From a virus (lineage: Duplodnaviria > Caudoviricetes): a DNA stretch of 63,816 nucleotides. Both the position numbers and the translations under genes were made by a program. Shown here piece by piece: positions 2,746 to 28,266 of this stretch. A model generated the notes under the pieces. It ran no database searches and was not told the origin of the DNA. It worked only from the letters and a program-made list of their open reading frames with translations. Positions within the stretch are counted from its first letter, which is position 1, and every line of letters begins with the position of its first letter. The stretch is from the IMG/VR virus record IMGVR_UViG_3300005253_000675, positions 1 to 63,816 of that record, one strand, 5' to 3'.

Positions 2746-2986
2746 GCGTCCTCGTCCACATCGTCTCGCGGAATTCTCTTGAGCCGATGCCGTACTTCTC
2801 GTGGAGCCGCCGGTTCAGGTCGCGGTCGAAGCAGCTCAGCCGGAGATGACGACCCTCGCGCAGCTCGTAGACCCGGCAGCGCTTGCTGCGGAAGAAGCCG
2901 CTGACCTGGCCGTCCGTCAACCCGATCCCGCGCAGGTAGATGCCGGCGCGCCGTCTCAGCTCTTTCAGGTCGCCGGGGTCAGCCAC
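2738..2986 (-). CDS. Hypothetical protein (82 aa)
   Basis: GTG start overlapping thyX end; fills the gap to polA. Confidence 0.6.
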   Translation of the reverse strand: MADPGDLKELRRRAGIYLRGIGLTDGQVSGFFRSKRCRVYELREGRHLRLSCFDRDLNRRLHEKYGIGSREFRETMWTRTRG

Positions 2987-3830
2987 GGATCGCCTCCAGC
3001 TTGGCCAGGAACTCGTCGGCCTCGCGCCCCTCCAGGCCGTACTCCCGCACCTCGTCTCGCGCCAGGCTCCAGTTGGGCGTGAGCACCAGGCCGCGCAGCG
3101 CCAGCAGCTCCGTTCGGCTGAACGTGACCGCCGCGGTACGGTAGTCGTGGAAGGCGTCGCTGATCGTGGGGAACGCCAGGTGAAAGAAGTAGAGGACCAC
3201 GTTGGCGTACTCGCGGATCTCCTCCTGGGCGTGGCTGTCCAGGCGCAGCCCCAGGAAGTGCATGAGGTTGTGGACGTCGATCTTCCAGAACGCCAGGGTG
3301 TAGGTCGAGAGCGGCAGGTCCTTCCGCGCCTGCTCTCGGGCCACGCCCGCGTCAAGCCGGCTCTTATATATCCACCGCGCTCGTTGCTGGAAGGCCACCT
3401 CCTCCTGGCTCAGCCGCTCGCCGACGTTCGACGCCACGCCCTGATCCGAGCCCTGCCTGTTCGCCTGGCTCTGGAGCCGCCAGGCGTCAGGCGCCGTCAC
3501 GGCCGTGTCGTCGATCGCCGCGGTATACCGCGTCGAGTACTCGTTGACGCTGGCCGTTCGGTGCCGGATCCACTGGCGCCAGGTGTCCATCGGGACCTTG
3601 ACGATGAAGACCATCTCGCACTGCTCGAAGGGCGTCGTGTGGTGGTGCCGCATCATGTAGCGCAGGAGGCGGCGGTCACCCGCCTCGTCTCGCTCGCCGT
3701 GCCTCCCGTAGCTGATGCGGGCGGCGTCCACCACCCGGTCGTCGTCGCCCATCACGTCCACGAGCTGGACGTATCCGTGGGTGCCCACGTCGACCTTCTC
3801 GCCGAGGGCGTCAGTCGCCATCTGATTCAT
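2979..3830 (-). CDS. thyX: FAD-dependent thymidylate synthase
   Basis: AARISY, HHTTPFE, RQWIRHRTASVNEYSTRY (RHRx7S), EQARKDLP, HAQEEIR. Confidence 0.97.
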   Translation of the reverse strand: MNQMATDALGEKVDVGTHGYVQLVDVMGDDDRVVDAARISYGRHGERDEAGDRRLLRYMMRHHHTTPFEQCEMVFIVKVPMDTWRQWIRHRTASVNEYSTRYTAAIDDTAVTAPDAWRLQSQANRQGSDQGVASNVGERLSQEEVAFQQRARWIYKSRLDAGVAREQARKDLPLSTYTLAFWKIDVHNLMHFLGLRLDSHAQEEIREYANVVLYFFHLAFPTISDAFHDYRTAAVTFSRTELLALRGLVLTPNWSLARDEVREYGLEGREADEFLAKLEAIRG

Positions 3831-5068
3831 CGTTCTCCTCCTTGTTTTATCTCTGCTGTCTGGGTGGCTTGAAGATACGTCTGTGCCGCCTGAAGGAAAG
3901 CCCCGTCGTCGAGCATACCGAGCGAGACGTTACACCCGCGACACAGGAGGCCGCGCACCTCCCCGGTTCGGTGATCGTGGTCGATCACCAACCTACGGTC
4001 GTCACGTTGGCAGATCCCGCAGAGGCCGTTTTGACTCAGCAGAAGTAGTTGATAGTCGTCTGGCCCCAGGTCGTACTTGATCAGGATCGAGCATCGTCGA
4101 CATCGGTGAGATGAGGCGGTCTGGTGTCCCTGCCAGTAGTGCTCATCGGTACGCGGCAGCACGTACCTGCAGGTGTTACACAACAGTCCGTCAGAGTGAT
4201 GAGGTTGAAGCTGGTCTTGATACCATCGCGCTGAGGCTGGGAGGTTGGTGCTCATGCTCCCTTTTCTCCCGGGCACGCCGGCCGCGGTTCTCGCCCATCT
4301 GACTACCCGCGCCCACCGCTGCTCGGCGCGGTCACCGCTGTCCACCTGAAGACGACGAGGTACGACGAACATGGGCGGTAAGTCCTCGGCGCGGCTTGGC
4401 TCGTGGAGCGCGTTTAGCGCGTCCAGGTCACGATCTACGTAGGCGTGTAGGCTTCCCGTTTGATGCAGGTACCAACCGACGTCAACCGCCAGGGCGTAGG
4501 CCACTGCATGTTGAAGGTTTGTGAACATCCAGGCGTCGTAGGGCAGGCCCCAGAAGACGTCGTTTGACCGCATCGTAGCGATCATGTCGAGTCGGCCGTT
4601 CCTGATGAAGAACTGAAACTGGAGCGTACAGGGAATGTCCTTGGACGGTAGCCTGTTGTCCCACGGGCGCCAGATCAACGCGCAGGCTTGACGCGTGTCG
4701 GGGTCTCGTCCCAGCAGCTCGATGAGTCGGGGAAACTGCTCGTAGGTGCGGGGACCGTAGGCGCCGCGCAGACGGTCACTCTCAACGAACTGTGTGAAGT
4801 TCTTCGTGATCGAGATCAGCTGGGCTGCGTCTGAGAGCCCGGCTATCAGCTGTACCGACTCGGCGGCGCCGATCTCTAGTCGTAGCTTACGCCCCGTCCC
4901 GATCGGCACGACGCGTGAGGGGTCGTGAATCAGAATGGTCACGCCTCGTAGCTCCCGGGTCCTGAGGCCTCGGGGTGAGACCTCGTCGCCCTCATCTAGG
5001 ACCTTGCGTACGATCGCGGCGTAGCTGTCCGTCAGGCTGTCGACCTCGAAGTCAGCGACGAAGGGCAT
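3827..5068 (-). CDS. Thymidylate-synthase-fold dCMP hydroxymethylase/methylase-like enzyme with C-terminal endonuclease VII domain
   Basis: GAYGPR, DTRQA, KDIPCT, MRSNDVFWGLPYD, GSLHAY; C-terminal CGIC..IDHDHRTGEVRGLLCRGCN. Confidence 0.9.
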   Translation of the reverse strand: MPFVADFEVDSLTDSYAAIVRKVLDEGDEVSPRGLRTRELRGVTILIHDPSRVVPIGTGRKLRLEIGAAESVQLIAGLSDAAQLISITKNFTQFVESDRLRGAYGPRTYEQFPRLIELLGRDPDTRQACALIWRPWDNRLPSKDIPCTLQFQFFIRNGRLDMIATMRSNDVFWGLPYDAWMFTNLQHAVAYALAVDVGWYLHQTGSLHAYVDRDLDALNALHEPSRAEDLPPMFVVPRRLQVDSGDRAEQRWARVVRWARTAAGVPGRKGSMSTNLPASARWYQDQLQPHHSDGLLCNTCRYVLPRTDEHYWQGHQTASSHRCRRCSILIKYDLGPDDYQLLLLSQNGLCGICQRDDRRLVIDHDHRTGEVRGLLCRGCNVSLGMLDDGAFLQAAQTYLQATQTAEIKQGGER

Positions 5069-5951
5069 CGATGGCCTCCTTGATGGGGTAGGGCTCGCCG
5101 TGATGGAAGCGCTTGGCGAACTGAGGGTGGTCCATGGGCTCGTGCTCGAAGCCGTGGGACGTCAGCCAGTCCTGGGCCACCTTGCCCAGCCCGATGATCC
5201 CGAGGGGGTTCAGCCGCTCGATGAAGCTGGGGTCCTCGGGCTGGCCGTCCGGCCTGAGGGCGTTGACCCAGTACAGCCAGCGCTCGTCCACGCCGGTCAG
5301 CTTCTCGGAGAGCCACGCGCTGCAGCCGTTGGTGCTGACGAACGGGAGCGGCGGGCCCGGCAGGTTGACGTTGATCCCGTTGGCCCGCTCGCCGACGAGC
5401 AGGACGGAGGTGTGCTCGAACCAGCCGACGCCCGGGCCGTGGTTGCCGGGCGAGCGGATCGTGACCAGGTCGTCACACAGCCGCTCCACCGTGTGACGGG
5501 TCCAGTCGTACGTGGTCGTGGGCAGCATCGACCCCTGCGTCTTGTAGAGCCGGTAGACCCACTCCAGCTGGTCGAGGGTGTCGAGCATCTCCAGCTGCTC
5601 GCGAGCCAGCCACGCGTCCCGGACGTGCGGGTCGTAGGGCGGGTAGCAGACGACCTGGACCACGCCGCCCAGGCCGAGGAGGGCGCGCTCCAGCACGCGC
5701 TGACCGTCGTCGCCGAGCATGTCGTGCTGCCGGAAGACCGGGCCGTAGATCCGCTCGCCCAGGTGGAGCCGGTCGCAGAGCACGTGCGACTGCTGGTACA
5801 GGTTCCGGGACATCGCGCCCAGCGTCTCGGTCAACACGTTCTGATGGTACGGTCCCTGATGGTGGCGGTTGACGCCGATCCAGCGGTAGGCCAGGTCGTC
5901 GGCCAACGTGCTCTTACCGGCGCCGTCGGGGCCTTCAACTATCGTCAGCAT
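5052..5951 (-). CDS. dNMP/thymidylate-kinase-like P-loop domain fused to UDG-superfamily-like domain
   Basis: IVEGPDGAGKST, CDRLHLGERIYG; C-half VLLVGER..PF..IIGLG..HPQF. Confidence 0.75.
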   Translation of the reverse strand: MLTIVEGPDGAGKSTLADDLAYRWIGVNRHHQGPYHQNVLTETLGAMSRNLYQQSHVLCDRLHLGERIYGPVFRQHDMLGDDGQRVLERALLGLGGVVQVVCYPPYDPHVRDAWLAREQLEMLDTLDQLEWVYRLYKTQGSMLPTTTYDWTRHTVERLCDDLVTIRSPGNHGPGVGWFEHTSVLLVGERANGINVNLPGPPLPFVSTNGCSAWLSEKLTGVDERWLYWVNALRPDGQPEDPSFIERLNPLGIIGLGKVAQDWLTSHGFEHEPMDHPQFAKRFHHGEPYPIKEAIDALRR

Positions 5952-6666
5952 CTGTCGTCTCCTTTTCTAGGAACGTCACGGGCTTGCCTCGTGAGCGGGC
6001 GTAGTCGATCTCGGCCTGGGTGGACGAGCCCACGTAGCCGCCCACGTTAACGACGCCCACCTCGTCAGCCAGGTCGATCTTGTGTAGGTGGAGCTGGTCC
6101 AGCTCCGCCTTCGTGGTGGCGTCCACGTCCTCCTCGTCAGCGTGGGAGAAGAACCCCACGCTGAGCACCATGAAGCCCGCGAGGGTGAAGTGCCGGTTCC
6201 AGCGAGCGTAGGCCTCCTTGAACTTCGTGGACCCGCAGAGGCACACGATCCTGGGCCCGGCCGAGTAGACCGGCGCGGGGACGCCGCTCGCTACGGCCCG
6301 GTCGATGATGCGCGCCGAGCGCGGCGGCTCCCAGCCCTCGGGCTTGCCCAGGTCGAACCCGCCGTAGGCGCGCTCGCTGACCACGCGCTCCTTCGACATG
6401 TTGGCTCGCTGGACGTCGGCCCAGAGCGCGTGCCAGGGGAGGCCCATCATCACGGCGGTGCCCATGGCCACGACCACCAGGTCGATCAGCGCGTCTGCCG
6501 CCTCGGGCAGGTCGTCCCGCTGGCAGGCCGCGTCGAACTCCAGCAGCTCCTCGCGCATGAAGCCCGACCGAAAGAGCTGGTCGGTCGTGGACAGGAACGT
6601 GGGGCCCGTCTCGATCGGCAGGCGGTGGTGCTGGTGCATCCGGTAAATGGAATCGAAGTTGGTCAC
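5935..6666 (-). CDS. All-alpha NTP pyrophosphohydrolase (MazG/PRA-PH-like) fused to nucleoside-deoxyribosyltransferase-like domain
   Basis: EELLEF..ADALIDL..NMSK..KPEGW; C-half CLCGSTKF..KIDLAD..GYVGSST.AEIDYA. Confidence 0.8.
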   Translation of the reverse strand: MTNFDSIYRMHQHHRLPIETGPTFLSTTDQLFRSGFMREELLEFDAACQRDDLPEAADALIDLVVVAMGTAVMMGLPWHALWADVQRANMSKERVVSERAYGGFDLGKPEGWEPPRSARIIDRAVASGVPAPVYSAGPRIVCLCGSTKFKEAYARWNRHFTLAGFMVLSVGFFSHADEEDVDATTKAELDQLHLHKIDLADEVGVVNVGGYVGSSTQAEIDYARSRGKPVTFLEKETTDADDS

Positions 6667-7763
6667 GTGATGATCTCCTCAGTGTGGTCCTTCTCCAGGT
6701 CGACGACGAACCGCCGACCGCGTTGACGCCGGCCGCGTTCCACGGCTCGGCGAAGGTTGTGGCCCAGCCACTCGCCGACGGTCGGCAGCACCGCCTGCGC
6801 CACCTCTGGGTAGCACGCCTCGGGCGTGGGCGGCGAGAACTCGTAGTCCACGGGATAGCCGCAGAGGACCTGCGACTCCTTGACGCTGAGCCAGCGGTCC
6901 TCGGTGGGATGAACGAGGTGGGTGCCGCCCATCATGGTCTTGCACGGCACGTTCGGCCGCAGACGTCGGTACGTGAACGCGGGCCGACCGATGACGGCGC
7001 CCAGCTTGTTGCGGGGCCAGGTCTCCTCGGGCCCGACGGTGGCGCGCATCTTCGCCTCCCAGTGGAGCCGGAGCGCCTGGCCCGGCGGACAGCCCTCCAT
7101 CATCGCCCGATCCCCGGCGCTCTCCATGTGACGGAAGGCGACGTGGGCGCGACACCTGAGGAGACCGGCCGCTCGCCAGGCCCGCGTGACCGAGACCTGC
7201 TGGTCAGGCTCCAGGTGAGGGTACTCCCAGTCGATCTTGACGCGGTGCGCCACGAAGAAGAACCGGCGGCGCTGCTGGGGCAGCCCGACGTGGACGCCGT
7301 TCAGGAGGACGTAGCTCACGGAGTAGCCCAGCTCCACCGCCTCCTCGGCCAGCTCGTCACACAGCTCGCGTCCCCGGTGGAAGGCGCCCTGCACGGACTC
7401 CCAGCACCAGACCGACGGGCGCAGGTACCGGATGGCGTCGAAGGCGTTGTAGACGCAGCTGACCCGGGGGTCGTGACGATAGTTGTCCTTGAAGTCGTGG
7501 TCGATCATCCGCTTGGGTCGGATGCCGGCGCCCGACCACGGGGCGCAGGGCGGGTTGCAGAACACCACCTTCACGCCGCGGCCGCGGTACGCGTCGAAGG
7601 GCCACGTCTCCGGGTTCGTGTGGACCTCGATACCGGGCATGTTCTGCCGGACCGTGTCCACGCCGAACGGGCCGTCCTCGAGATGGCCCAGCACGTCGAA
7701 CCCGGCGGCGCGCATGCCGATGGAAAAACCGCCTCCAAAAATATATATTCCGAGCGCGTTCAT
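6663..7763 (-). CDS. Atypical C5 cytosine DNA methyltransferase
   Basis: Catalytic NPPC, WESV (motif VI), PQQRRRFF (VIII), RWLSVKE..GYP (IX); divergent motifs I and X. Confidence 0.85.
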   Translation of the reverse strand: MNALGIYIFGGGFSIGMRAAGFDVLGHLEDGPFGVDTVRQNMPGIEVHTNPETWPFDAYRGRGVKVVFCNPPCAPWSGAGIRPKRMIDHDFKDNYRHDPRVSCVYNAFDAIRYLRPSVWCWESVQGAFHRGRELCDELAEEAVELGYSVSYVLLNGVHVGLPQQRRRFFFVAHRVKIDWEYPHLEPDQQVSVTRAWRAAGLLRCRAHVAFRHMESAGDRAMMEGCPPGQALRLHWEAKMRATVGPEETWPRNKLGAVIGRPAFTYRRLRPNVPCKTMMGGTHLVHPTEDRWLSVKESQVLCGYPVDYEFSPPTPEACYPEVAQAVLPTVGEWLGHNLRRAVERGRRQRGRRFVVDLEKDHTEEIIT

Positions 7764-7921
7764 CTCGGGGCCTTTTCGAGCAGCTTCTTCTTCTGTTCAG
7801 CGTGTCTTTTACAGAAACATCCGTACGAGACGGTCCCGCTGCTCCGGACCTCGTAGGTAGCCTGCCTGAGACAGCCGGACGCTTGACACGTATCCAGTAA
7901 CCTCACCAGGTAGAACGCCAT
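7760..7921 (-). CDS. Small Cys/His protein (53 aa)
   Basis: MAFYLVRLLDTCQASGC..FCKRH; GAGG RBS; ATGA coupling to the MTase. Confidence 0.55.
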   Translation of the reverse strand: MAFYLVRLLDTCQASGCLRQATYEVRSSGTVSYGCFCKRHAEQKKKLLEKAPR

Positions 7922-7931
7922 GATCGCTACC

Positions 7932-9443
7932 TCAGTGATGAGAGAATAGGGGGTTGTCGAAGCCGATGAGCTGAAGGGTTTCTTTCGCTCTGGTCAGGCC
8001 GACGTAGAAGACGCGTCGCTCGTGGTCCGGCTCGCGCTGGATCTCGCGCTGGATCACCCGGCTCAGGTCGGTCAGGAGGACGACGTGATCGGCCTGGCCG
8101 CCCTTGGCCGCGTGGATCGTCGAGAGGAAGACCTTGGGGGCGTCCGTCAGCGCCTTGGCCCCGTGGTGCCGGACCACCCGCCGGATGTAGCTGACCTCGT
8201 CGTCGGGGATCTTGTCCAGCGCCTCGAACCACGGCTCGTCCGTGAGCAGGCCCAGCTCCTCCCGTGCCGTGTCCAGGTCCACCTTCTCGCGCTCGCATCG
8301 CTCCAGCCGGGCGCGAGCGTCCAGGGAGACGCCGCGGCCCACGGTCATCGCCTCGTAGACCTCGTGCAGCTGGGCGGGCGAGACGCGGCCCTGCTTCCGC
8401 AGGCTCTCCCACAGCACGATGGGGTGCGACCAGGCGCCGCCGACGGTCGGCCGCTGGCCGTGGCCGAAGGGGACGCCCTCGCTCCGCAGGCGCGCCTCGA
8501 CCGCCTGGCCGAGGTAGTGGTTCCGGTACAGCACCAGGTACGAGCCCTCGCGGTCGTAGTCCACGTTCTCCTGGCTCATCAGCCAGCGGACCTCGCCGGC
8601 CTCGTCGCGGGGCTTCCACTCCTTGGGCTGCCGGCGCCGGATGCGGCTGACCATCTGGCCGGCCAGCTCGTGAACCGCGGCGGGGACGCGGTAGCTCTGG
8701 CCGAGCACCTCGACCTCCCCCTGCAGCGTCAGCAGCTCCTCGGGCTCGGCGCCCGCCCAGGCGAAGATCGCCTGGTCGTCGTCGCCCGCCACGTACACCC
8801 TCTCGGCGTCGGCCGCGAGCCGCTCCAGCGTGCGCCACTGGAGCCAGCTCAGGTCCTGGGCCTCGTCCACGAGGACGACGTCCACCGGCAGCGGGCCCTC
8901 GACGTTGATCAGGAGGTCGGTGAAGTCGAGCAGCCCCTCGTCCGTCTTCCACCTCGCGTAGGTCTCGCAGAAGTGCCGGGTGATGAAGAGGTCCTCGTCC
9001 TCGCGCCACCCGCGATAGCCCTCCTCGATCGTCTGACCGCGGTGCCGGCGGAGGTGGTCGAACGTCAGGAACCGGTCGCCGCGGAGGTTGCCGTTGGTCA
9101 TGGTCAGACCGGACTCCGTGGCGCGGCTCGGCCCCGTCATCTCCATGCCGATCAGCTCCGAGAACTCTCGCAGCTCGCCGTGGTGGATCATCATCGGGCC
9201 GCTGACCTCCAGCTCCCGGTAGGCGATGGAGTGCAGCGTCCGGAAGAACGGCATCTGCTCCTCGGTGAACCCGAACCGCTCGACCGTCCGGCTGACCGCC
9301 TCGCGGCGGGCCTTCGTGGTGAACGTGACGTAGGCGACTCGTTCAGGGGGAGTGCCTTCTTCTAGCGCCTCTTCGAGAAGGTTGAGGAGCGTGGTTGTCT
9401 TCCCCGTGCCCGGCGGGCCGAAGATCTTGGTCACCTGGTTCAT
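7932..9443 (-). CDS. UvrD/Rep SF1 helicase
   Basis: GPPGTGKT, VDEAQD, GDDDQAIF, QSYR, STIHAAKG, FYVGLTRA. Confidence 0.95.
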   Translation of the reverse strand: MNQVTKIFGPPGTGKTTTLLNLLEEALEEGTPPERVAYVTFTTKARREAVSRTVERFGFTEEQMPFFRTLHSIAYRELEVSGPMMIHHGELREFSELIGMEMTGPSRATESGLTMTNGNLRGDRFLTFDHLRRHRGQTIEEGYRGWREDEDLFITRHFCETYARWKTDEGLLDFTDLLINVEGPLPVDVVLVDEAQDLSWLQWRTLERLAADAERVYVAGDDDQAIFAWAGAEPEELLTLQGEVEVLGQSYRVPAAVHELAGQMVSRIRRRQPKEWKPRDEAGEVRWLMSQENVDYDREGSYLVLYRNHYLGQAVEARLRSEGVPFGHGQRPTVGGAWSHPIVLWESLRKQGRVSPAQLHEVYEAMTVGRGVSLDARARLERCEREKVDLDTAREELGLLTDEPWFEALDKIPDDEVSYIRRVVRHHGAKALTDAPKVFLSTIHAAKGGQADHVVLLTDLSRVIQREIQREPDHERRVFYVGLTRAKETLQLIGFDNPLFSHH

Positions 9444-9529
9444 TGGTCGCGCCACTCCTTCCAGAGGTCGAGCACGGCCACCACGAACGTGAACAGCGCG
9501 GCCGCGAAGTTGATGAGCGACCTGGTCAT
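9440..9529 (-). CDS. Micro membrane peptide (29 aa)
   Basis: MTRSLINFAAALFTFVVAVLDLW; ATGA overlaps on both sides. Confidence 0.5.
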   Translation of the reverse strand: MTRSLINFAAALFTFVVAVLDLWKEWRDQ

Positions 9530-9729
9530 CGGTCGCGCTGCTCTCGCCCGACCGCCTCGACGACCGCGTCGTCCAGGGCCATGTACTCGTCGGCCGTCAA
9601 GGGCAGCCACAGCTGGTCGCCGATCTCGACGGACCGGAGCGTCTGTATGATGATCACGCTGATGGCGATCAGCAGGCCGACGACCACCACGACCGCGGCT
9701 ATGAATGCCTCAAAAATCAGGTCCGTCAT
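9526..9729 (-). CDS. Small membrane protein
   Basis: N-terminal hydrophobic helix. Confidence 0.6.
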   Translation of the reverse strand: MTDLIFEAFIAAVVVVVGLLIAISVIIIQTLRSVEIGDQLWLPLTADEYMALDDAVVEAVGREQRDR

Positions 9730-11269
9730 GTCCCTTCTCCTTGTAGTCCTGGGTCTGCTCCTTGGTGGGCGTCGGCATCCACCAGACGGCCAGGTCCGCG
9801 CCGCCGACCTTCAGGGTCGTGAAGCCGCCGCCCTCGTTCCTGATGACGCTCCAGATCCCGACGCTGTTCATGTCCCGGGCGCGACGGTTCTCCAGGAACT
9901 CGATGAGGGCGAGGGAGCGGAAGTAGACGCGGCCCTTGTGCTCCCAGGGCTTGTTGTCCAGGAGGTCCTCGTCGGTGTCCGACTTCATCCGCAGCATGAG
10001 GAACTCCATCAGCCGCAGGAGGAACTGGCCCAGCGGGCCGGCGTCGTCGGGCACCTCCACCACGATGTGGGTGGCGATCAGGTCGCGGACCTTCGTGTCC
10101 CAGTCCACGTTCTTGAGCTGGGGCACCTGGATCTTCGTCTTGCGGAAGGCCGTACGCTTGAACAGGGTCATGGAGCCCAGCTCGTCGGGCGTCAGCGTCA
10201 TCCGCCGGCCCGCCAGCTCCAGCTCGTATAGCGGGTCGTCGCGGCCGTTCTCGAAGCTGACCAGGCGGCCGAGCGGCGGGAAGGCGGCGCGGGCCGCGAC
10301 GCGGCTGAAGCGCTCGATCCCGAACTCCCGCTTCCGGCAGAGCGTCTTCTTGCAGAGCGTCTCGATCGGCGCGTCCTTGCACTTGTAGACGTAGTCGCTC
10401 CGGGTCAGGCTCCGGACGATGTTCTCGATCTCGTCGGCCGGGAGCGACGGGGTGACCACGCCGCTGTTCTCGTTGTAGTCCTCCAGGACCTTCTCCCAGC
10501 TGTCGGGGAACTTCAGCTTGAGGAAGATCCCGATGTTGTGGAGGGCGCCGTTCCGCGAGCCCTTGCCAATCTGCGTTTGGTGTAGGGTCTGGAGGCAGGG
10601 CGGCCCGTCCAGGAAGAAGGCGTCGTGGTCGACGCCCAGCTGGACCTGACGCACGTCCAGCTCGTTCTCGGTGAGCCGCATGGACTCGGCGTGATCGAGG
10701 AACGCCTCGAGGCTCATCGCCTCGCCGGCCTCGTCCACGCAGTAGCGGGTGGTGTCGTCGCTCCCGAAGTACGGTAGGTTGAGCCAGTTGCCCTTCTGCC
10801 CGGGCGAGAGCGCGATCTGCTTGGGAAAGTATTCCAGGGGCGGGGCGTTCCCCTCGTCGTCCGCTGGGTTCGTCAGCCCCAGCAGCTCGCTCCACCGCTT
10901 CATCTTGGCGAGCAGGTGGACCGGCTTGATCGGCTCCATGAAGAACAGAAACAGGTGGGCGCCGCCGCTCTTGGAGCGACAGATGACGAACGGCAGGCCG
11001 AGGACGCCCACCTCCTGGATGAGCGACGCGTGGTCCGTCTCGTCGTCGTCTAGGTCGATGCAGCCCCAGTGGCATGTGCCCGCGTCGCTGATCGGTACGA
11101 TGCCGATGCCCGTCTTGTCCCCGGCCAGATGCCGGTCCCACGCCCCGTCGGGGATGGGACCGGCCTTGGTGTAGGCGTTCAGCTTCGCCCCTGTCTTGGG
11201 GTCGGCCTCGTACTGCCCGTACCAGTCCTCGTTGCCGCGGAAGAGACGCTCGAAGCGCTCTCTCGACAT
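9710..11269 (-). CDS. Archaeo-eukaryotic-type primase with PriCT-like domain
   Basis: WGCIDLD, RSKSGGAH, GNWLNLPY, PPC, G.RN. Confidence 0.85.
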   Translation of the reverse strand: MSRERFERLFRGNEDWYGQYEADPKTGAKLNAYTKAGPIPDGAWDRHLAGDKTGIGIVPISDAGTCHWGCIDLDDDETDHASLIQEVGVLGLPFVICRSKSGGAHLFLFFMEPIKPVHLLAKMKRWSELLGLTNPADDEGNAPPLEYFPKQIALSPGQKGNWLNLPYFGSDDTTRYCVDEAGEAMSLEAFLDHAESMRLTENELDVRQVQLGVDHDAFFLDGPPCLQTLHQTQIGKGSRNGALHNIGIFLKLKFPDSWEKVLEDYNENSGVVTPSLPADEIENIVRSLTRSDYVYKCKDAPIETLCKKTLCRKREFGIERFSRVAARAAFPPLGRLVSFENGRDDPLYELELAGRRMTLTPDELGSMTLFKRTAFRKTKIQVPQLKNVDWDTKVRDLIATHIVVEVPDDAGPLGQFLLRLMEFLMLRMKSDTDEDLLDNKPWEHKGRVYFRSLALIEFLENRRARDMNSVGIWSVIRNEGGGFTTLKVGGADLAVWWMPTPTKEQTQDYKEKGHDGPDF

Positions 11270-11275
11270 CCCAGG

Positions 11276-12106
11276 CTAGAAGCCCGGAGCGCCGTCTTCG
11301 ACCTCTGCCTCGGGTATCGCCTCGCCGTCCATCCGGCGCCAGTCCACCTGGCCGGCTCCGGCGTCCATCAGCTCCTCGAAGCCCCTGGCTCTGGGCACCA
11401 GCTCGCCCGCCTCCTCCATGTCGAAGAGGTCGACCTGGCACTCCGGCTTCTTCAGCACGAAGAACCGGCCCTTGTCGTTGACCTTCTCCACGGTGGTCGC
11501 CTTCCAGACGCTCCACCAGCGGGGCAGGTCGGCGTGGACCACGCCGTCGATCTCTCGGCGCTGGCGGCCGATGTCCGTGTTCCACAGGCGCGAGGGCGTG
11601 AGCCCCGTCATCTTCAGGGGGAAGATGGCCTCGCTCCAGCTGCCGTCCGGCAGCCGTACGAGGACGGCCTGCTGGTGGGTGTCCACGAGGTCGTGCTTGT
11701 CGAGGTCCTTGCAGTTGGCCTCGGCCTCCCGCATGTCCGGCGGGTGGAGCCCGACGAACCCGCCGCCCTCCTTCCGCTTGATCCACTCGATGATGTGGCG
11801 GCTGAAGTGGCAGGGGATGATCATCACGCCCTCGTCCCCGTCCCAGATGGCGCCGCTCACGGACTCGTGGAACATGCCGGGCTCGGCGCCCTCCACGTAG
11901 GCGTCGTCCTTCTTCGCGACCTGGGGGCTGAGCGCCTGCAGGATGTTGAGGAACGGCAGGGCCATCTCGGCCTGGCCGACCTCCTTGCTCCCGGCGCCGG
12001 CGTAGGCGGTCGCCATCTCTCCCCTGCTCATGCCGCCGATGATGGCGGTGTCCGTCTTCTTCCTCGCGACGCTCTTGGCGGGCTTCTTTTTCCTTGGTGT
12101 GGCCAT
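11276..12106 (-). CDS. Putative ssDNA-binding protein
   Basis: LPFLNILQALSPQV, GAEPG, acidic tail ending in F; located in the replication module. Confidence 0.6.
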   Translation of the reverse strand: MATPRKKKPAKSVARKKTDTAIIGGMSRGEMATAYAGAGSKEVGQAEMALPFLNILQALSPQVAKKDDAYVEGAEPGMFHESVSGAIWDGDEGVMIIPCHFSRHIIEWIKRKEGGGFVGLHPPDMREAEANCKDLDKHDLVDTHQQAVLVRLPDGSWSEAIFPLKMTGLTPSRLWNTDIGRQRREIDGVVHADLPRWWSVWKATTVEKVNDKGRFFVLKKPECQVDLFDMEEAGELVPRARGFEELMDAGAGQVDWRRMDGEAIPEAEVEDGAPGF

Positions 12107-12623: not shown

Positions 12624-12956
12624 TCAGGCGTGGTTGCAGGGGACGACGTAATACACCGGCACCCCGCGGTCCTTGCTCATCTGGCGGTCAAATTTTATCA
12701 TCGCGTACCGACCGCCGTTGGCACGCGCTGCCTCCACGCAGGCGATCCCAATGCCCGCCGGGTCACCGTTGGGTAGGATGAAGTCGTCGTCGCTGAAGTC
12801 TCGCAACGCGGTCCTGATCTTCTGGATCGTGGGGACCGCGTTGAGGAACACCTGGTCGCCGGCCGGCAGGAGAAAGACCAGCTCGCCGTAGTCAGCAGCG
12901 GGTAGGAAATTTTTGCGCGAATCCTCCTGGATAATGAACACTCTACCTTTTTTCAT
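12624..12956 (-). CDS. Hypothetical phage protein
   Basis: A.DYGEL, DDFILPNGDP; in operon. Confidence 0.7.
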   Translation of the reverse strand: MKKGRVFIIQEDSRKNFLPAADYGELVFLLPAGDQVFLNAVPTIQKIRTALRDFSDDDFILPNGDPAGIGIACVEAARANGGRYAMIKFDRQMSKDRGVPVYYVVPCNHA

Positions 12957-13567
12957 TTGCGCTCCTTTTCTGCAGTTCGTCTCCGTCTCTGTCCTTCTCG
13001 GTGACGGCGTTTAGCGTCAGGGTCGTTAAACCTTTTCTTCTGCGCCCTACTCATATGACGCCGGGTCTCGTCACTGTGCGTTCTAGGCGGTCGTTTAAGC
13101 GCCGATTGGCTCATATTTTTTCGAGCTTCAAGCGACTTTTTAACCCCCCTAAGCTTTTCTCCGATACAAATTTTTGCTTTTTCGGTGTGCCTATACCCAC
13201 GAAGTTTACGCCTAGTTTCCTCAGATACCGGGGGCCTTCTTAAAGCAGCTTCGCTCATTTTGTTTCTTGTATCGTCAGTGACTACACGAACCTTAACGGC
13301 CTCGCTGATTCTACATTTCGCCTCTGGGCTATGGCGGTAGGTCACCGGTCCTGAGCCACCTGCGTTAAGGTTCCGCTTCGGTCGCCAAAGGTCGATGAGC
13401 TTCCTCTCAAGCCACTGCGCATACGCTCTATCGCACCGTACGAATCTCCTAAACGTTGCGCCCTTGAATTTTCGTTTATGCTCACGCTCACGTTTGAGTG
13501 GCCGCTTGGTCAGCCCGACGTACACCAGTGAACCTTTCTGGTATATCCCATATACGACGTACGGCAT
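12953..13567 (-). mobile_element. Free-standing GIY-YIG homing endonuclease with NUMOD3-like repeats
   Basis: VYGI..VYVG.T..R..EH..E..LI..N; repeated HS.ET(R)..MS; AT-richer than flanks. Confidence 0.85.
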
Positions 13568-13569
13568 GG

Positions 13570-17026: not shown

Positions 17027-17041
17027 ACAGGAGACAGACAG

Positions 17042-20438: not shown

Positions 20439-20523
20439 AGCAGCTCGTCCAGCGTGAGAAGCACGAAGACGACGACCACCCAGACGGCTGCCCCGACCAA
20501 CGCGACCCCAACTATGTTCGCGA

Positions 20524-21206: not shown

Positions 21207-21220
21207 GTCAGCCTCCTTGG

Positions 21221-21484
21221 TTATGGTCCGGTCTCGTCACAGCCCAGCGGGCAGGTCAGCACGCTGGGGTTCCGGCCGCGGAAGACGAGCTTCGACCCGC
21301 AGTGGTCACAGTCGCCCACCTCGCCCTCCCAGCCCTCGTCCAGGTGGCGCTCCGCCGTGGCCAGGGCCCGCAGCCGCTGGGCCATGCGCCCCAGCTCCTC
21401 GCGGCTCTGGCTGATCACCGCGTCCCGGAGGCCGTCGAGCGCGTCGGCCACCTCGCGGAGCGCCTCGCCCGACGTCTCAGCCAT
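21221..21484 (-). CDS. Small Zn-ribbon protein
   Basis: CDHC..CPLGC. Confidence 0.6.
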   Translation of the reverse strand: MAETSGEALREVADALDGLRDAVISQSREELGRMAQRLRALATAERHLDEGWEGEVGDCDHCGSKLVFRGRNPSVLTCPLGCDETGP

Positions 21485-22076
21485 CGACCGGCCGCTTCAG
21501 CTCGCCCGCGCCCTCGTAGACGCTGGCCACGGCCAGTTCGTAGTTCGCGGAGCCGCAGCTGGGGCAGTAGCCGCCGGCGTGGAGGGCGGGGTCGGCCTCG
21601 TACTTCGTCCGGCAGTGGAGACACAGCCGCAGCTCGGGCTCCTCGGCCTGGGCGCCGGTCCCGGAGCCGAGCACCCTCACCTCCACGCCGCCGGCCCTCA
21701 GGATCGCGACGCCGGCCTCCTCGTCACGGTGCCGTCCCTGGTACCACACGGTCTCGACGTTCCCCTGGTTCACGATCCGCTTGGCGCAGGCGGTACAGGG
21801 GGAGATCGTCGTGAACAGGACCAGGCCGCGCTCCTCGGTCCGGAGCTTGACCAGCGCGTTGTCCTCGGCGTGGAGGCAGCCGCAGTTCCCGGGCTCCTCG
21901 CGATCGCAGGCGTGGGGGCCGCCGCGGTAGTTGCCGTTGTAGCCGATGGAGTAGATCGCGGTCAGCCGGGCGTCGGCGACCACGCAGCCGACCTTGAGAC
22001 GGGCGCACGTAGCCCGGCGGGCCATGAGCCTCGCCACGCACATCATCGTCTCCTCCATCGAGGGGCGGTCGGTCAC
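21477..22076 (-). CDS. dCMP deaminase with C-terminal Zn ribbon
   Basis: C.RLKVG, GYNG, LHAEDNAL, SPCTAC. Confidence 0.93.
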   Translation of the reverse strand: MTDRPSMEETMMCVARLMARRATCARLKVGCVVADARLTAIYSIGYNGNYRGGPHACDREEPGNCGCLHAEDNALVKLRTEERGLVLFTTISPCTACAKRIVNQGNVETVWYQGRHRDEEAGVAILRAGGVEVRVLGSGTGAQAEEPELRLCLHCRTKYEADPALHAGGYCPSCGSANYELAVASVYEGAGELKRPVDG

Positions 22077-23693: not shown

Positions 23694-23950
23694 CCTCGGA
23701 ACCGCCCGGTCTCGAAGCTGCGGACCGTCACCGGCATGTGGCCCGCGCAGGGCTCGCCATGCTCGACGGCCTTCCGGTTACACGGCCGGCCGCTCCGTCG
23801 ATCGATCACGCCACAGCGCTCGTAGGCGTGGTCCTTGGAGTGGCGGTGACAGAAGAGGGGGTCGGCGTCGATCACGCGGTTCTGGCACCGGCGCCTGTGG
23901 AACGTCTGGGCGGTGCAGCGGGAGTTCTGTCCCTGGGGGTTCATCGTCAC
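23690..23950 (-). CDS. Tandem C3H Zn-finger protein
   Basis: Two C..C..CxxH units. Confidence 0.6.
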   Translation of the reverse strand: MTMNPQGQNSRCTAQTFHRRRCQNRVIDADPLFCHRHSKDHAYERCGVIDRRSGRPCNRKAVEHGEPCAGHMPVTVRSFETGRFRG

Positions 23951-24156
23951 TCGTCCCTGAAGATGCGGGAGGTGACCTGCTCGATCCCGATCTGGGCGGC
24001 CTCGCCGTTGCCCATGTTTCCCCGCCAGACCCGCATGGCGACGTCCACGGCCTCCTGGCGGGCCTCCGGCGTCAGCCGCCGGCCCACCGGGTCACGGTCC
24101 ACGTTCTGCTCGATCACGGCCCGGTTGCCGGGCAGGTGTCGGTGCGTCATGTTCAT
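23947..24156 (-). CDS. Hypothetical protein
   Basis: AGACAGGAGAC leader before the ATG. Confidence 0.6.
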   Translation of the reverse strand: MNMTHRHLPGNRAVIEQNVDRDPVGRRLTPEARQEAVDVAMRVWRGNMGNGEAAQIGIEQVTSRIFRDE

Positions 24157-24492
24157 GTCTCCTGTCTGGAGGTGTAGTTGCGGTGGTTCTTGGCCCGGGC
24201 CCGCGAGGCTCGGTGCCGGCTCTTGTCCCGGAGGGCCTCGCGCTCCTCCAGGGTGATCTCGTACGACGTGCCGGCGGCGCGGTTCCAGGTCCAGAGCCGG
24301 CCGCAACGACGTCGGTGCTCCAACCTCGCCAGGCCCTTCATTCGTCGATACCTGGACGCCAGTCAAAGTGCTTGGCGGCCTCACGCAGCCTGTTTGCGTG
24401 CTCGGGTTCGTGGTCCCGGTCAGCTTTGTCGGCTTCCCTAATGAGTTCCTCCTGCTTGATTTCGCGCTGGTGCCGTTTGATCGTAATGTGTT

Positions 24493-24690
24493 TCATAGGG
24501 AGCTTGGGACAGATAATGCGTCATCATCACGTGAACGCGCCCTGAGCTGACGGTAGGTGCTCCGTCGCGTGAGGCCGTACAGCACCACCCGGGACAGGAA
24601 CTCGGGGTCGGTCCGCTGGACCTCCTCGGCCTGCCTGGCGATGTCGTGCGGCAGCCTCACCTCGAGGCTGATCGTCCTGGTCTCCCACAT
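24493..24690 (-). CDS. Small ribbon-helix-helix-like protein
   Basis: TISLEVRLPHDIA pattern (beta strand followed by helices). Confidence 0.6.
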   Translation of the reverse strand: MWETRTISLEVRLPHDIARQAEEVQRTDPEFLSRVVLYGLTRRSTYRQLRARSRDDDALSVPSSL

Positions 24691-24691
24691 G

Positions 24692-25405
24692 TCAAGCCTC
24701 CTCTCGCGCTCGGTTGAGCGTGTCCTCCGCGAACTGCGCGGGCTCCTCGACCTCGTGGTTCGAGATCTTCTCTAGCGCCTCTCGGTACCTCTTGAGAGGT
24801 CCGTCACCCGGCCTCACCCCGTCGAGAGCGGTGCGGGCGATCTCGGCGATTGCCGGGATCTTCGTGTTCTCGTGTGCGCCACCCTTGATAACGCTCTCGA
24901 TGGCTTCCAGAGCCTCACGCAGCTTGGCTTCCGTCGGACCAGAGGCACGAATGAACGCCGCCTCAGCCTCCCGCAGCCCATCGTCTAGCTGCTCGCGGCT
25001 ATGATCCGCGTCGATCAGCCCCGTGGCATCGCCACGTCTGTGCACCTCACAAATCCCAGCGCCACTCCCAGCAAACCGTACGCACTGCCGTCCAGTTTCC
25101 CGCGATACAGCCTTGCACCTCACCACATTTTCCCGCAGCCCATCGCTGGGCGCTGGTGGGCGGGTGAAACGACGGTCCCCCTTGCGTTTATCATTCGGCC
25201 CACAGTTGCATGGACGTGGGGGCCATTCGTGGGGCACCCCGTCGCGACACGTTGTCGGTTCACCCGTCACGCCATTGCGGTCCCAACCTTTTTTGACGGA
25301 ACAGCCAGAGCACAAATCCAACTCATTCGAACGACACCAGCTTGTGTGTTCACTCTCTCGCTCCCCACCAATGACCGGATCAGGGGCTGGTTTTTTAGTT
25401 GCCAT
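24692..25405 (-). CDS. Mosaic Cys-rich hypothetical protein
   Basis: Zn-finger-like modules and repeated (L/Y)REALE.I. Confidence 0.6.
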   Translation of the reverse strand: MATKKPAPDPVIGGERESEHTSWCRSNELDLCSGCSVKKGWDRNGVTGEPTTCRDGVPHEWPPRPCNCGPNDKRKGDRRFTRPPAPSDGLRENVVRCKAVSRETGRQCVRFAGSGAGICEVHRRGDATGLIDADHSREQLDDGLREAEAAFIRASGPTEAKLREALEAIESVIKGGAHENTKIPAIAEIARTALDGVRPGDGPLKRYREALEKISNHEVEEPAQFAEDTLNRAREEA

Positions 25406-25940
25406 ATCTACTCACTTCGATTCCCATTCCGCTTTTGGTATCTAGTTGGATGCCTTCGTCGTTCGTTGGTCCGGCCCAAGTGATTTCATGGACGCCGCCC
25501 GCCATCCGCTGCACGACAACCAAGGCGAGGTCTGCTACCGCATCGGGTATGGGCTCTGCGCCGTAACTATCCCAATCCTTCTTCAAGCTGCGGAAATGCA
25601 CGATACGCTTCACCACATCAGTTTCTAGCTGGATGGGCTTCTCGGGCTCTCCCCGCTCCTCGGTGGCTGCCTTGGCGTCGGCCTTGGCCTTGGCTCTTAA
25701 TACACCGACATTGTGTGGATCAAACGAGCCCCTACATGATGTCCCAGTGTGGGGAGCCTCAAGGATGCATCCCAGTTCACATTTCTTCTCCCCCCCACCG
25801 CTTGTATCGCTTTCGGTGGCTGCTGGGGGCTTGGGATCAATCCTGGGCATCCACCGGTGACCGCACACTCCACACTGTTTGCCGTAGCCGCCGAATTTCA
25901 CGAGTGTACTGTCGCAGGTACCGCATCGCTCACCCATCAT
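25395..25940 (-). CDS. Mosaic hypothetical protein
   Basis: CGTC..CGVC; DWDSYGAEPI module; lower GC. Confidence 0.6.
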   Translation of the reverse strand: MMGERCGTCDSTLVKFGGYGKQCGVCGHRWMPRIDPKPPAATESDTSGGGEKKCELGCILEAPHTGTSCRGSFDPHNVGVLRAKAKADAKAATEERGEPEKPIQLETDVVKRIVHFRSLKKDWDSYGAEPIPDAVADLALVVVQRMAGGVHEITWAGPTNDEGIQLDTKSGMGIEVSRYGN

Positions 25941-26060
25941 CCTGGCTCCTGCTCGGTGGGGGTGCCAAGTAATGTTTGGGTCTTGGGCTCTCGCTCACCC
26001 AACGGCGGACCCACATATAGCTTGCCATTCCATATCCTAAGGTAAAGCGTAAATACGACC

Positions 26061-26837
26061 TTACACATCTGGCTTCTCCTCCTGCGCTGGGGGCTCGGTA
26101 ATGAGCGGTTCATTCCACTCCAACATCAGACTCTTGTTGTAATGGCTGCCCTCATGTCCAGCTTTTCGAGTGCAGACTACGGGACACGCCTCGACCTTTC
26201 GGTCTATCGCTTCGCACTGTACTGTGGGCATTTCATGTTCTATTCGGGCTATATACTTAAGCATCCCCTCGAACCATGCCTGATCAACAGCGTTGCCCCT
26301 GGCCCTAGCGGCTTCCACATCTTCCCGGGCTTCTCGCTTCATCCTTTGCCAGTGTGTCTCGTCCACTTCTGTTGGGGGCTCGGCGGTGAGGGCGGCGCGG
26401 GCTTCGCAGTTATGGCATCCACATGGAGGATCACAGGCGTAATTTGCGAAGGGCTTCAGTGCCTTGCGCAACCTCGCCGCTCGCGCTCCCTCCAGCTCAT
26501 CCCTGGCTGTGGCGCAGAATGGGCACTCAATGTTGCCATCGTCCACTGAATAATGCTGCCCGCATACCTCACAGCTACGAGGACCCATGTCCCCCACAGG
26601 TCCAGCCTTCTCCTCATCCCCGGCTGTGGCTGATGGGTAAATGAGCAGGTGCCCCATCTCTGTGTTGAACCACCGCGCAAACTCTCTCGCGGCCTCCTCT
26701 ACCTCTACCCCGTCCGCGAAAACGAACCTGCCGTCGGCGGTGATGCGAAACATTTCCTCGCCCTCATTGGGATGAAATACGAGGGGGTGAGGCTCGGATT
26801 GCGACATTTTCATTTTTATCGGTGTGCGCTCACTCAT
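26061..26837 (-). CDS. Mosaic hypothetical protein
   Basis: Several small modules joined by EPP linkers; lower GC. Confidence 0.6.
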   Translation of the reverse strand: MSERTPIKMKMSQSEPHPLVFHPNEGEEMFRITADGRFVFADGVEVEEAAREFARWFNTEMGHLLIYPSATAGDEEKAGPVGDMGPRSCEVCGQHYSVDDGNIECPFCATARDELEGARAARLRKALKPFANYACDPPCGCHNCEARAALTAEPPTEVDETHWQRMKREAREDVEAARARGNAVDQAWFEGMLKYIARIEHEMPTVQCEAIDRKVEACPVVCTRKAGHEGSHYNKSLMLEWNEPLITEPPAQEEKPDV

Positions 26838-27084
26838 CGGCTTTGGGCTCCTGGGGAGAGAGACGTTTGACCCACGCCTCATCGAACGCGGCCATCGCTT
26901 CTGCGGGCGAATCTCCGAAACCCGCAACGCCGTCTTGGAGATTCTCACCGTAGAGTGCGCACCACTGATCGCCGTCGATGCTCAGACTTGGACGGAAGAT
27001 GGTGCTGGGACAGACCGCTACGTTCGCGGCATCTAGCCGCCTGTCTGCTGAGGCGTTGTCGATGTCATCGCTGTAGGCTGTCAT
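26830..27084 (-). CDS. Conserved phage hypothetical protein
   Basis: DGDQWCALYGENLQDGVAGFGDSP. Confidence 0.7.
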   Translation of the reverse strand: MTAYSDDIDNASADRRLDAANVAVCPSTIFRPSLSIDGDQWCALYGENLQDGVAGFGDSPAEAMAAFDEAWVKRLSPQEPKADE

Positions 27085-27148
27085 TCCTGTTTCTCTTCCT
27101 GCGCTGGGGCCTCACGGTTATACTTGCCCTTCCAATTACACAGCCGCT

Positions 27149-27364
27149 CTACCTCCATGGTCGAGACGACCCGGCCTTCGCGTGACCGGGCAGCTTGCCC
27201 TGCGAGCTAAGATGGCCCGACAGGCCACGCGCCGAGGGGAAGCCCTGGCCGCAGGTGCACCAGGCCACCCGGGGAAGGGCCGCGTACCAGCACGGTAGAC
27301 AGCGGCCAGCTGCCCCGGGGAAGTCGGCCGACGGCCGCTTTCCGCAGGTCCGGCAGGAGCTCAC
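27149..27364 (-). CDS. Small Zn-finger protein
   Basis: CRTC, CLPC, CTCG..F....L.GH. Confidence 0.5.
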   Translation of the reverse strand: MSSCRTCGKRPSADFPGAAGRCLPCWYAALPRVAWCTCGQGFPSARGLSGHLSSQGKLPGHAKAGSSRPWR

Positions 27365-28266
27365 GAGGCCACCTTGAACCGGCGCCGCAGGTTCTGGCCG
27401 TCGGTGCGTCGGGCCTCGTGGTACCGGCCGAACTCGCAGAGGCAGTTCTCCACGTCGGAGCGGTCCAGGTAGACGTAGTCGAGCGCGCCGTGGTCCCAGC
27501 TGGGCATCCGGCCCTCGAGGAACCGGTCCTGGCGGCCGCGGAGCCAGACGAGGCGCTCATTGTAGCCCGCCTCGCCGGGGCCGCGGTCGGGCGCGTTGTC
27601 GACGAGGTCCATCCCCCGCCGCGCGCCGGGCCCGAGCAGGGCGTACCCGTCGTTGGAGTGCGGCAGGTTTAACCCGTTCTCCGGGTAGCTGAGGTCCAGG
27701 CAGGTCTGGTAGGCGACGAAGGGGCCGATCCCCTGGAACTCACGTAGGAGCCGGAGCAGCTGACGCCGGTCCAGGAGCGTCCAGTCAGGCGCCTCGTCCT
27801 GGCGACGAGCGGCCAGCTCCGCCGCGGCCCGGGCCCAGAGCGTCGGCCAGCTGTCCCGCTTGGGGCCCGGGATGCCGGCGTTCCCGAGGAGGTACGCGCC
27901 CGTGTACGGATGGCCGGGGCCGAAGTCCGCCATCCGGGCCCTGACGTCATCCGCGTTCGAGAGACCGGCCTCGTCGATCGTCAGCCACCCCACGTGCGCC
28001 TTCGAGTCCTCGCGCAGCCCCTGGCGATACGCCAGGACGTTCAGGAGCACCTCGTCGTTCGACGCGTCTAGGTCGAGGCGGCCCTCGGCGACGTGGTCCA
28101 CCAGCCAGGCCGTCCCGGGGTCGAGCCGCCGGTAGACGTTCGTGAACCGGTAGGCGCGGAGGTACGGGTCGTCGGTCCACGGCGACGGCCGGCCCTCGAC
28201 GTGGCGGGCGTACCAGATCCGGTGTCGCTCCCGGACCCAGTGCCAGAACAGCTTCTCGTTGGTCAC
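27361..28266 (-). CDS. aGPT-Pplase1 / 5-hmdU DNA kinase helical-domain family base-modification enzyme
   Basis: ERHRIW..R..G.P.PWTDDP.L..YRFTNVYR..D; HhH GIGPFVAYQ..D; GPGA.RG; DVENCLCEF.RY. Confidence 0.9.
   Translation of the reverse strand: MTNEKLFWHWVRERHRIWYARHVEGRPSPWTDDPYLRAYRFTNVYRRLDPGTAWLVDHVAEGRLDLDASNDEVLLNVLAYRQGLREDSKAHVGWLTIDEAGLSNADDVRARMADFGPGHPYTGAYLLGNAGIPGPKRDSWPTLWARAAAELAARRQDEAPDWTLLDRRQLLRLLREFQGIGPFVAYQTCLDLSYPENGLNLPHSNDGYALLGPGARRGMDLVDNAPDRGPGEAGYNERLVWLRGRQDRFLEGRMPSWDHGALDYVYLDRSDVENCLCEFGRYHEARRTDGQNLRRRFKVAS

Follow-up and report, generated by a model that had tools for sequence, protein, structure and literature searches.

Genes of the pyrimidine locus

The window analysed here is the whole of IMG/VR record IMGVR_UViG_3300005253_000675, a linear stretch of 63,816 bases (GC ~67%) that holds most of the genome of a tailed phage rich in GC (CheckV completeness, 84%; ~16% of the genome is not in the window), and its subject is a set of minus-strand genes that bear on how the phage may modify the pyrimidines of its DNA. 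Genes were picked by third-position GC (GC3) and named through Pfam and PHROGs. Five of them form a run at 2979–7763 in which neighbours overlap by 4–17 bases each in the table of open reading frames (ORFs): a C5 cytosine DNA methyltransferase (C5-MTase; 6663–7763; PF00145, E = 2.5e-22, residues 11–336) with the PC motif NPPCAPWS; a MazG/PRA-PH-type nucleoside triphosphate pyrophosphohydrolase (residues 9–89) with a C-terminal domain (5935–6666; PF01503, E = 7e-11; PHROG nucleotide pyrophosphohydrolase); a P-loop protein of 299 aa, fusing a deoxynucleoside monophosphate (dNMP) kinase to a uracil-DNA glycosylase (UDG)-like domain (5052–5951; Walker A motif and predicted fold); a thymidylate synthase (TS)-fold protein with an Endonuclease VII domain (3827–5068; PF00303 at residues 15–215, E = 2.5e-19; Endonuclease_7 at residues 328–400); and the flavin-dependent thymidylate synthase ThyX, which converts dUMP to dTMP (2979–3830; PF02511, E = 5e-47; phrog_85; GC3, 0.93). 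A gap of 233 bases separates this run from PolA, a family A DNA polymerase (91–2745; 3'-5' exonuclease, PF01612, and polymerase, PF00476, E = 4e-61) that carries an intein/HNH insert. Farther along the same strand lie a dCMP deaminase, converting dCMP to dUMP (21477–22076; PF00383, E = 1e-14; phrog_174, E = 2e-35), and a protein of family PF18723 (27361–28326 as an ORF, 27361–28266 from the database start; 122 bits; curated cut-off, 25). The block from C5-MTase to PolA and the two outlying genes had been named in a preliminary description of the window, and Pfam and PHROGs bore out both.

The TS-fold enzyme and the neighbouring nucleotide genes

The window TS was compared with 120 metagenome homologues, with the enzymes of phages T4, SPO1, SP10, ViI, phiW-14, M6, PaMx11 and Pam3, and with IMG/VR loci. 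It contains the string RSNDVFWGLPYD, the last Asp of which aligned with N177 of E. coli ThyA in both HMMER and MAFFT, as the preliminary description had read it. In the MAFFT alignment, Asp occupied position 177 of the window TS, T4 gp42 and 120/120 metagenome homologues, and Asn that of 7/7 enzymes from phages with 5-hydroxymethyluracil (hmU; SP10, ViI, phiW-14, SPO1 gp29, PaMx11 gp51, M6 gp58 and Pam3_52), giving a four-position signature of DCDD for the window and T4 gp42 against DCDN for the seven hmU-phage enzymes. In ThyA numbering the window enzyme reads D143, C146, T147, D169 and D177, as T4 gp42 does (local sequence, SKD-IPC around 143–146 and RSND around 169); these five residues were invariant across a 57-row family alignment, with the catalytic Cys (C146) in its aligned column in 129/129 rows. 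The best solved relative, identified by HMMER against structures, was the CMP hydroxymethylase MilA (E = 9e-19), also with Asp aligned at 177.

Each of these positions has a published interpretation. Passages of PMC13326640 give Leu at position 143 for methylating enzymes and Asp or Glu for hydroxymethylating ones, and name Asn at position 169 as the mark of 5-hydroxy-dCMP synthases, while the rule for cytosine selection at position 177 appears in passages of both PMC13326640 and PMC8670742, the latter also reporting that Asp177 marks cytosine-modified metavirome contigs and that position 147 is diagnostic as well. The combination of Asp177, Asp143, Asp169 and Thr147 thus points to a dCMP 5-hydroxymethylase and not to a methylase, a 5-hydroxy-dCMP synthase or a dUMP enzyme. 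The window TS carries the published signature of that activity and is predicted to have it, which agrees with the cytosine-type enzyme proposed in the preliminary description insofar as residues can indicate.

The TS fold occupies residues 1–225 of the protein and Endonuclease VII approximately residues 288–405, a fusion also present in five of the 120 listed homologues (P0005, P0006, P0007, P0013 and P0064). The gene has a GC3 of 0.72, compared to ~0.93 in its neighbours, and this low value together with the fusion hints at a mobile cassette. A quick IQ-TREE phylogeny of 69 rows placed the Asn-type hydroxymethylases in one clade (Shimodaira–Hasegawa-like approximate likelihood ratio test [SH-aLRT], 98) and true ThyA in another (SH-aLRT, 100), with the Asp-type rows divided between a group containing T4 gp42, gp47 of Microbacterium phage Golden and three IMG/VR loci (L135, L140 and L144), and a second group containing the window, the phage DSL-LC01 and a Manatee Spring phage in which the gene is annotated ‘pyrimidine hmase’. 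In this phylogeny, of the kind that the preliminary description had proposed, the clade of the window is separate from that of T4 gp42, and all Asp-type enzymes may still share a single origin.

The kinase/UDG fusion has the Walker A motif GPDGAGKS and, after the P-loop, an invariant DR motif of the kind typical of thymidylate kinases. A model built from 66 homologues reached a pLDDT of 95, and Foldseek matched its N-terminal half to thymidylate (TMK) and deoxynucleoside kinases and its C-terminal half, which matched no Pfam family, to family-4 UDG (1ui0/1ui1, E = 1.3e-4; 4zbx, E = 4e-4), so that the earlier label ‘dNMP kinase/UDG-like’ stands for both halves. The protein has ~110 homologues of like length and, judged from its modelled fold, is a putative kinase of 5-hydroxymethyl-dCMP (hm-dCMP) joined to a uracil-type DNA glycosylase. 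The MazG-type protein is a candidate dCTPase. Its C-terminal part, described earlier as a nucleoside deoxyribosyltransferase (NDT), had no Pfam match and no DUF4406 (PF14359) in six frames, and Atlas feature scores of 0.80–0.83 to clusters named DUF2493/DUF4406 serve as leads only; the domain is possibly NDT/SLOG-like.

Part of this arrangement recurs in other phages. DSL-LC01 (OQ999401), a metagenome-assembled Actinomycetia phage that PMC10611076 calls uncultured and for which the comparison covers one 12.6 kb stretch, and the IMG/VR loci L017–L020 (records G001–G004) share with the window both the TS clade and the order kinase(/UDG), Asp-type TS, dCMP deaminase, (PolA). The order with the kinase/UDG fusion itself was present in L019, L020 and DSL-LC01, and L017 has an N-terminal-only kinase match at the place of the fusion beside its Asp-type TS. 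Unlike the window, L017–L020 have no PF18723 protein, and tblastn with window proteins found in them no homologue of ThyX, the MazG fusion or the C5-MTase, the last having no homologue in any related locus searched. Megablast of 2979–12106 against phage records gave no match. The exact kinase/UDG protein was found on a 97,603-base contig, a contig of 61,084 bases encodes a PF18723 protein with 98% identity, and fuller copies of the phage may exist on this account.

The closest characterised counterpart is the 5-hydroxymethylcytosine (hmC) pathway of T4 (gp56 dCTPase, gp42, gp1 dNMP kinase, cd and td), the set of roles of which is the same as that in the window. T4 gp42 shares DCDD and Thr147 with the window TS at ~30% identity over part of the length, though from a different clade. 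Compared to T4, the window has a MazG-type pyrophosphatase, a kinase fused to a UDG-like domain, a TS fused to Endonuclease VII, ThyX in place of td, a C5-MTase and no glucosyltransferase. Because the MazG-type protein, the Asp-type TS, the dNMP-kinase fusion, ThyX and the deaminase reproduce the T4 logic, with substrates assigned by prediction, it can be held with moderate confidence that the core is a T4-like, pre-replicative replacement of C by hmC, of a known kind, carried out by a new enzyme clade and new fusions. In such a pathway, the MazG-type pyrophosphatase would convert dCTP to dCMP, the TS-fold enzyme would hydroxymethylate dCMP, as its four diagnostic residues suggest, the kinase domain of the fusion would produce hm-dCDP, as its fold and conserved adjacency suggest, and hmC would enter DNA through a host nucleoside diphosphate kinase and the phage PolA. 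The dCMP deaminase and ThyX would supply dTMP, as cd and td do in T4, in keeping with the earlier remark that ThyX can serve as a source of dTMP, and the fused UDG-like domain, from its fold and conserved motifs, probably clears uracil-type bases from phage DNA. The preliminary description had presented the gene set as a departure from textbook routes and had named a match to a characterised pathway as the outcome that would speak against it; for the core, such a match to T4 logic is largely what was found.

Several observations weigh against a T4-like replacement. All of the enzyme activities are predicted, and the dCTP specificity of the MazG-type protein is an assumption. The window TS falls, on the quick tree, in a clade apart from that of T4 gp42 and without a characterised member, and the C5-MTase in the same run would have no substrate if C were fully replaced. 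Unlike T4, no glycosyltransferase or other hmC-decorating enzyme was seen in the window, with ~16% of the genome missing and exact or near-exact copies of two of its proteins lying on other contigs (97.6 and 61 kb). Lastly, the pathway gives no role to the PF18723 protein, which keeps all of its family motifs at a GC3 of 0.93 and is for these reasons probably functional.

The PF18723 protein and its phage relatives

The PF18723 protein (P0002), a member of aGPT-Pplase clade 1 and of the Pfam family named ‘HMUDK_hel’, has 301 aa from its database start, a GTG at 28266. This GTG and the stop codon of the preceding ORF overlap in a GTGA, and a consensus scan of 26900–29500 found no minus-strand promoter-like site, contrary to the promoter of its own that the gene had been given previously. 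The family motifs FTNVYRxLDPGT, GIGPF..Q...DL.Y, NC.CE and RRRF are kept. The model (pLDDT, 88) had PaMx11 gp46 as its best Foldseek match (E = 0.075), and its VIA Z scores were 10.0 to an archaeal OGG (3knt), 9.8 to PaMx11 gp46 (8z2n), 9.7 to a queuine salvage enzyme and 8–9.7 to AlkA, Mag1 and EndoIII, where a Z of ~10 gives no more than moderate support in the case of a helical protein. As modelled, the protein has the helix-hairpin-helix glycosylase fold and is a predicted paralogue of the amino acid:DNA transferases.

It is not a kinase, and it contains no Walker A motif. Passages of PMC8989533 assign 5-hydroxymethyldeoxyuridine (5-hmdU) DNA kinase activity to the P-loop proteins M6 gp54, PaMx11 gp49, ViI gp67 and gp243, phiW-14 gp37 and SP10 gp186, assign amino acid transfer to clade 2 proteins, and report that M6 gp55 was dispensable in vitro, reactions without gp55 still giving product. 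In Pfam scans, M6 gp54 and PaMx11 gp49 matched PF18748, M6 gp51 PF18724 and M6 gp55 PF18723, so that in these two phages the kinase is a P-loop protein of its own. The name ‘HMUDK_hel’ is misleading in that the kinase (gp54) belongs to PF18748 and gp55 to PF18723, and only in some phages, such as SP10, is PF18723 fused to the kinase; the ‘5-hmdU DNA kinase-like’ enzyme of the preliminary description is better described as a glycosylase-fold paralogue. No activity is assigned to the PF18723 paralogue in the relevant passages of two papers, from 2018 and 2021, and a limited literature search found no published link between PF18723 and cytosine.

The genes adjoining it encode small Cys-rich proteins. 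Just downstream, three minus-strand ORFs (24692–25405, 25395–25940 and 26061–26948; 237, 181 and 295 aa; GC3, 0.62–0.65) with Cys/zinc-ribbon-like motifs gave no significant Pfam or PHROGs match and no homologues in related loci. Two further ORFs near the gene, at 28263–28556 and 28558–28926, were also compared with related loci by tblastn.

The clusters of M6, PaMx11, ViI, phiW-14 and SP10, as described in passages of PMC8989533 and PMC5889632, share the PF18723 paralogue with the window, together with backbone replication genes, namely SNF2 (33–34% identical), proteins like Pam3 gp33 and gp34, and PolA. Compared to these clusters, the window has an Asp-type and not an Asn-type TS, its PF18723 gene is not adjacent to the TS, and no P-loop 5-hmdU DNA kinase, amino acid:DNA transferase or HD nucleotidase was found. 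A six-frame search of the window at E ≤ 1 was negative for the families PF18748, PF18747, PF18751, PF18724, PF20691 and PF12851 (including TAGT and TET_JBP). When 28 proteins from the PaMx11, M6, Pam3, T4 and SPO1 loci were used in tblastn, only the TS and PF18723 matched at E < 0.001, the kinases M6 gp54 and PaMx11 gp49 giving nothing better than E = 0.15 and the HD nucleotidases (PaMx11 gp52, M6 gp59 and Pam3_53) nothing better than E = 0.7. UvrD and the kinase/UDG fusion are the only in-frame Walker A proteins of the window. The P-loop domain that defines 5-HMUDK (PF18748/PF18747) is thus absent from the visible 84% of the genome, as is the set of Asn177 TS, 5-HMUDK and PF18724 that makes up M6/PaMx11-type thymidine hypermodification. 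In agreement with the preliminary description, which had recognised neither an amino acid:DNA transferase nor a glycosyltransferase, no enzyme of post-replicative hypermodification is recognisable in this part of the genome.

Co-occurrence of Asp-type TS and PF18723 was explored from both sides in IMG/VR, with loci fetched using alignments (single-sequence scans with the TS and with the PF18723 protein gave nothing). On the TS side, the records of 50 of 80 Asp-type loci were searched, the 30 shortest or most redundant being dropped, and PF18723 was present in three, each covering 5–11% of a large phage whose TS falls in the gp42 clade; it occurred in none of the closest TS relatives and in 0/7 records at least 90% complete. 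On the PF18723 side, which included 50 of 52 loci (two partial matches dropped) and 19 records at least 90% complete, a PF00303 TS-fold gene accompanied PF18723 in 41/50 records (18/19 of the records at least 90% complete), PF18748 in 18/50 (12/19), PF18724 in 20/50 (13/19) and PF18751 in 7/50 (3/19). Of the PF18723 loci, 39 have a TS no more than 10 kb away, which is of the Asn type in 35 and of the Asp type in four (L135, L136, L140 and L144). The records of these four (G081, G082, G086 and G090, the last 100% complete) each have one TS-fold gene and lack PF18748, PF18724 and PF18751; TET_JBP was not found in them by a search run without a positive control. In L135 two genes lead up to the Asp-type TS, one for a weak TAGT-like glycosyltransferase and one that is DUF4406/NDT-like.

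Golden (cluster EA1), a cultured phage according to PMC6318371, resembles the window in having PF18723, an Asp-type TS, MazG and a thymidylate-kinase-like gene, and its complete genome has no PF18748 and no PF18724. Its gp47 (NC_042117; L101, 4944–5750) is annotated as ThyX and is actually a PF00303 protein (E = 2.4e-7) with the DCDD signature, encoded 2 kb from a pair of overlapping genes for a Ploopntkinase3 protein and PF18723. In the window, unlike Golden, no such kinase gene overlaps that of PF18723, and the Golden TS and PF18723 proteins fall in other clades than those of the window. The passages of PMC7302621 make no mention of DNA modification in cluster EA. The co-occurrence that the preliminary description had proposed to examine is present in four IMG/VR records and in Golden, and does not extend to the closest TS relatives or to the clades in which the window itself falls.

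A quick tree of 69 PF18723 rows placed the window in a 24-row clade (SH-aLRT, 89) with metagenome relatives (70–80% identical) and 11 IMG/VR loci, 10 of which have no TS within 10 kb. The clade includes G054, a record of 98% completeness in which there is a distant Asn-type TS and nothing from the kinase or transferase families. The subfamily of the window usually occurs without an adjacent TS, kinase or transferase. The Asp-linked examples and the copy of locus L128 both fall outside the clade, and for this reason the window looks like an assortment of separate modules, as far as the trees allow, and not a conserved unit of Asp-type TS and PF18723. L128 is the closest backbone relative of the window (UvrD, 40%; primase, 34%; SNF2, 33% identical), and descent of the window PF18723 as a vertical relic of an M6-type cluster was considered and rejected, the tree placing the two copies in different clades. 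At 8780–17580 of L128 (record G074), five genes lie in a row, for PF18723, a radical SAM/SPASM protein, a TET-associated glycosyltransferase (TAGT, E = 1e-13), a TS of the Asn type and an HD nucleotidase; the record has no PF18748 or PF18724, and the cluster may represent an undescribed thymidine modification.

The replication genes of the window are distant relatives of M6-, PaMx11- and Pam3-type phage genes. Beyond the C5-MTase lie UvrD, an AEP primase, proteins like Pam3 gp34 and gp33, a GIY-YIG endonuclease and the SNF2 helicase, and the right arm of the genome is a structural and lysis module. The GIY-YIG/NUMOD3 gene among them (12953–13588, minus strand; GC3, 0.51) is of the homing type, and in PolA the intein (Hint_2, Intein_splicing) with its HNH_3 endonuclease (residues 502–546) occupies approximately residues 391–655, between the exonuclease and polymerase halves. 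Near the right end, all on the minus strand, are a DUF2786/DUF7168 protein (59663–60448), a type also near PF18723 in Golden, a 381 aa protein of a populous viral family (60552–61697; phrog_10079, E = 1.7e-94; no Pfam family and unnamed Atlas clusters) and a Lar-like restriction alleviation protein (61701–62111; PF14354, E = 9.5e-8).

Alternative readings and wider meaning

The PF18723 protein raises the question of whether hmC, once incorporated, is modified further. In a new cytosine hypermodification, PF18723 would flip hmC out of the DNA and exchange or decorate its 5-substituent, whether by itself, together with the kinase/UDG protein in the role of an hmC kinase on DNA, or together with enzymes encoded in the 16% of the genome outside the window, and this is considered unlikely. 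Consistent with it, PF18723 occurs with an Asp-type enzyme as the only TS-fold gene, and without PF18748 or PF18724, in the four IMG/VR records, in which the uncontrolled search also found no TET_JBP; the same combination is present in the complete Golden genome, where a P-loop kinase gene overlaps that of PF18723. In the window, the PF18723 motifs are intact, the modelled fold comes nearest to PaMx11 gp46, a transferase that acts on DNA, and to glycosylases that flip bases, and the fusion protein joins its kinase domain to a fold of the base-flipping kind. However, both the PF18723 and the TS of the window are outside the tree clades of the Asp-linked examples, the two genes are 22 kb apart, PF18723 was rare among records fetched by the window-type TS and absent from the closest of them, and no PF18723 protein has a known function. 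The kinase/UDG fusion is kept beside the TS in phages without PF18723 and has a thymidylate-kinase-like DR motif, which fits a nucleotide kinase. Similarly, it is rather unlikely that PF18723 is not tied to hmU and instead flips 5hmC from DNA to start an undescribed cytosine hypermodification in the window phage, Golden and several IMG/VR phages in which an Asp-type TS is the sole source of C5-hydroxymethyl groups. In this reading, the kinase joined to the UDG-fold domain in the window may activate the hydroxymethyl group. Such a cytosine-directed role, itself rather unlikely, has some recurrent support elsewhere and little that is specific to the window.

The TS may alternatively make another C5 product (5-methyl-dCMP as in XP-12, or an unknown one), or may have been acquired recently as a passenger on a mobile Endonuclease VII cassette and hardly affect the phage DNA, both of which would be in keeping with its depressed GC3, its endonuclease fusion and a clade that is uncharacterised; the C5-MTase in the same run would also make sense if C stayed unmodified at the nucleotide level. 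This is quite improbable, as an Asp at 143 where methylating enzymes have Leu, and an Asp at 169 in place of Asn, argue for hydroxymethylation, the five active-site positions are invariant in the 57 family members, and the TS gene overlaps both of its neighbours in the run. The indirect route to hmU set out in the preliminary description, in which the dCMP deaminase would convert hm-dCMP to hm-dUMP and PF18723 would act on hmU in DNA, draws on the deaminase gene that directly follows the Asp-type TS gene in L017, L019, L020, L135 and DSL-LC01, and on the dUMP-hydroxymethylase type of the flanking TS in 35/39 PF18723 loci. That route is disfavoured, and is very improbable, since ThyX in the same run as the TS implies that dTMP is being made, no HD-type nucleotidase matched the window (such a gene adjoins the TS in M6, PaMx11 and L128) and no 5-hmdU kinase or transferase was found. 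In addition, the window deaminase is 16 kb from the TS, and T4 has both a deaminase and gp42, yet makes no hmU.

An orphan PF18723 marks a gap in knowledge, as the family occurs in phages without a recognisable source of hmU, and because Golden is cultured, nucleoside analysis is feasible on the PF18723 question. If the T4-like core is true, hmC replacement of the T4 kind would be widespread in small high-GC and freshwater phages. It would draw on an uncharacterised second clade of Asp-type TS enzymes and on the conserved kinase/UDG fusion, the C-terminal half of which matched no Pfam family, and would have a bearing on restriction evasion, on sequencing bias in viromes and on the sourcing of enzymes.

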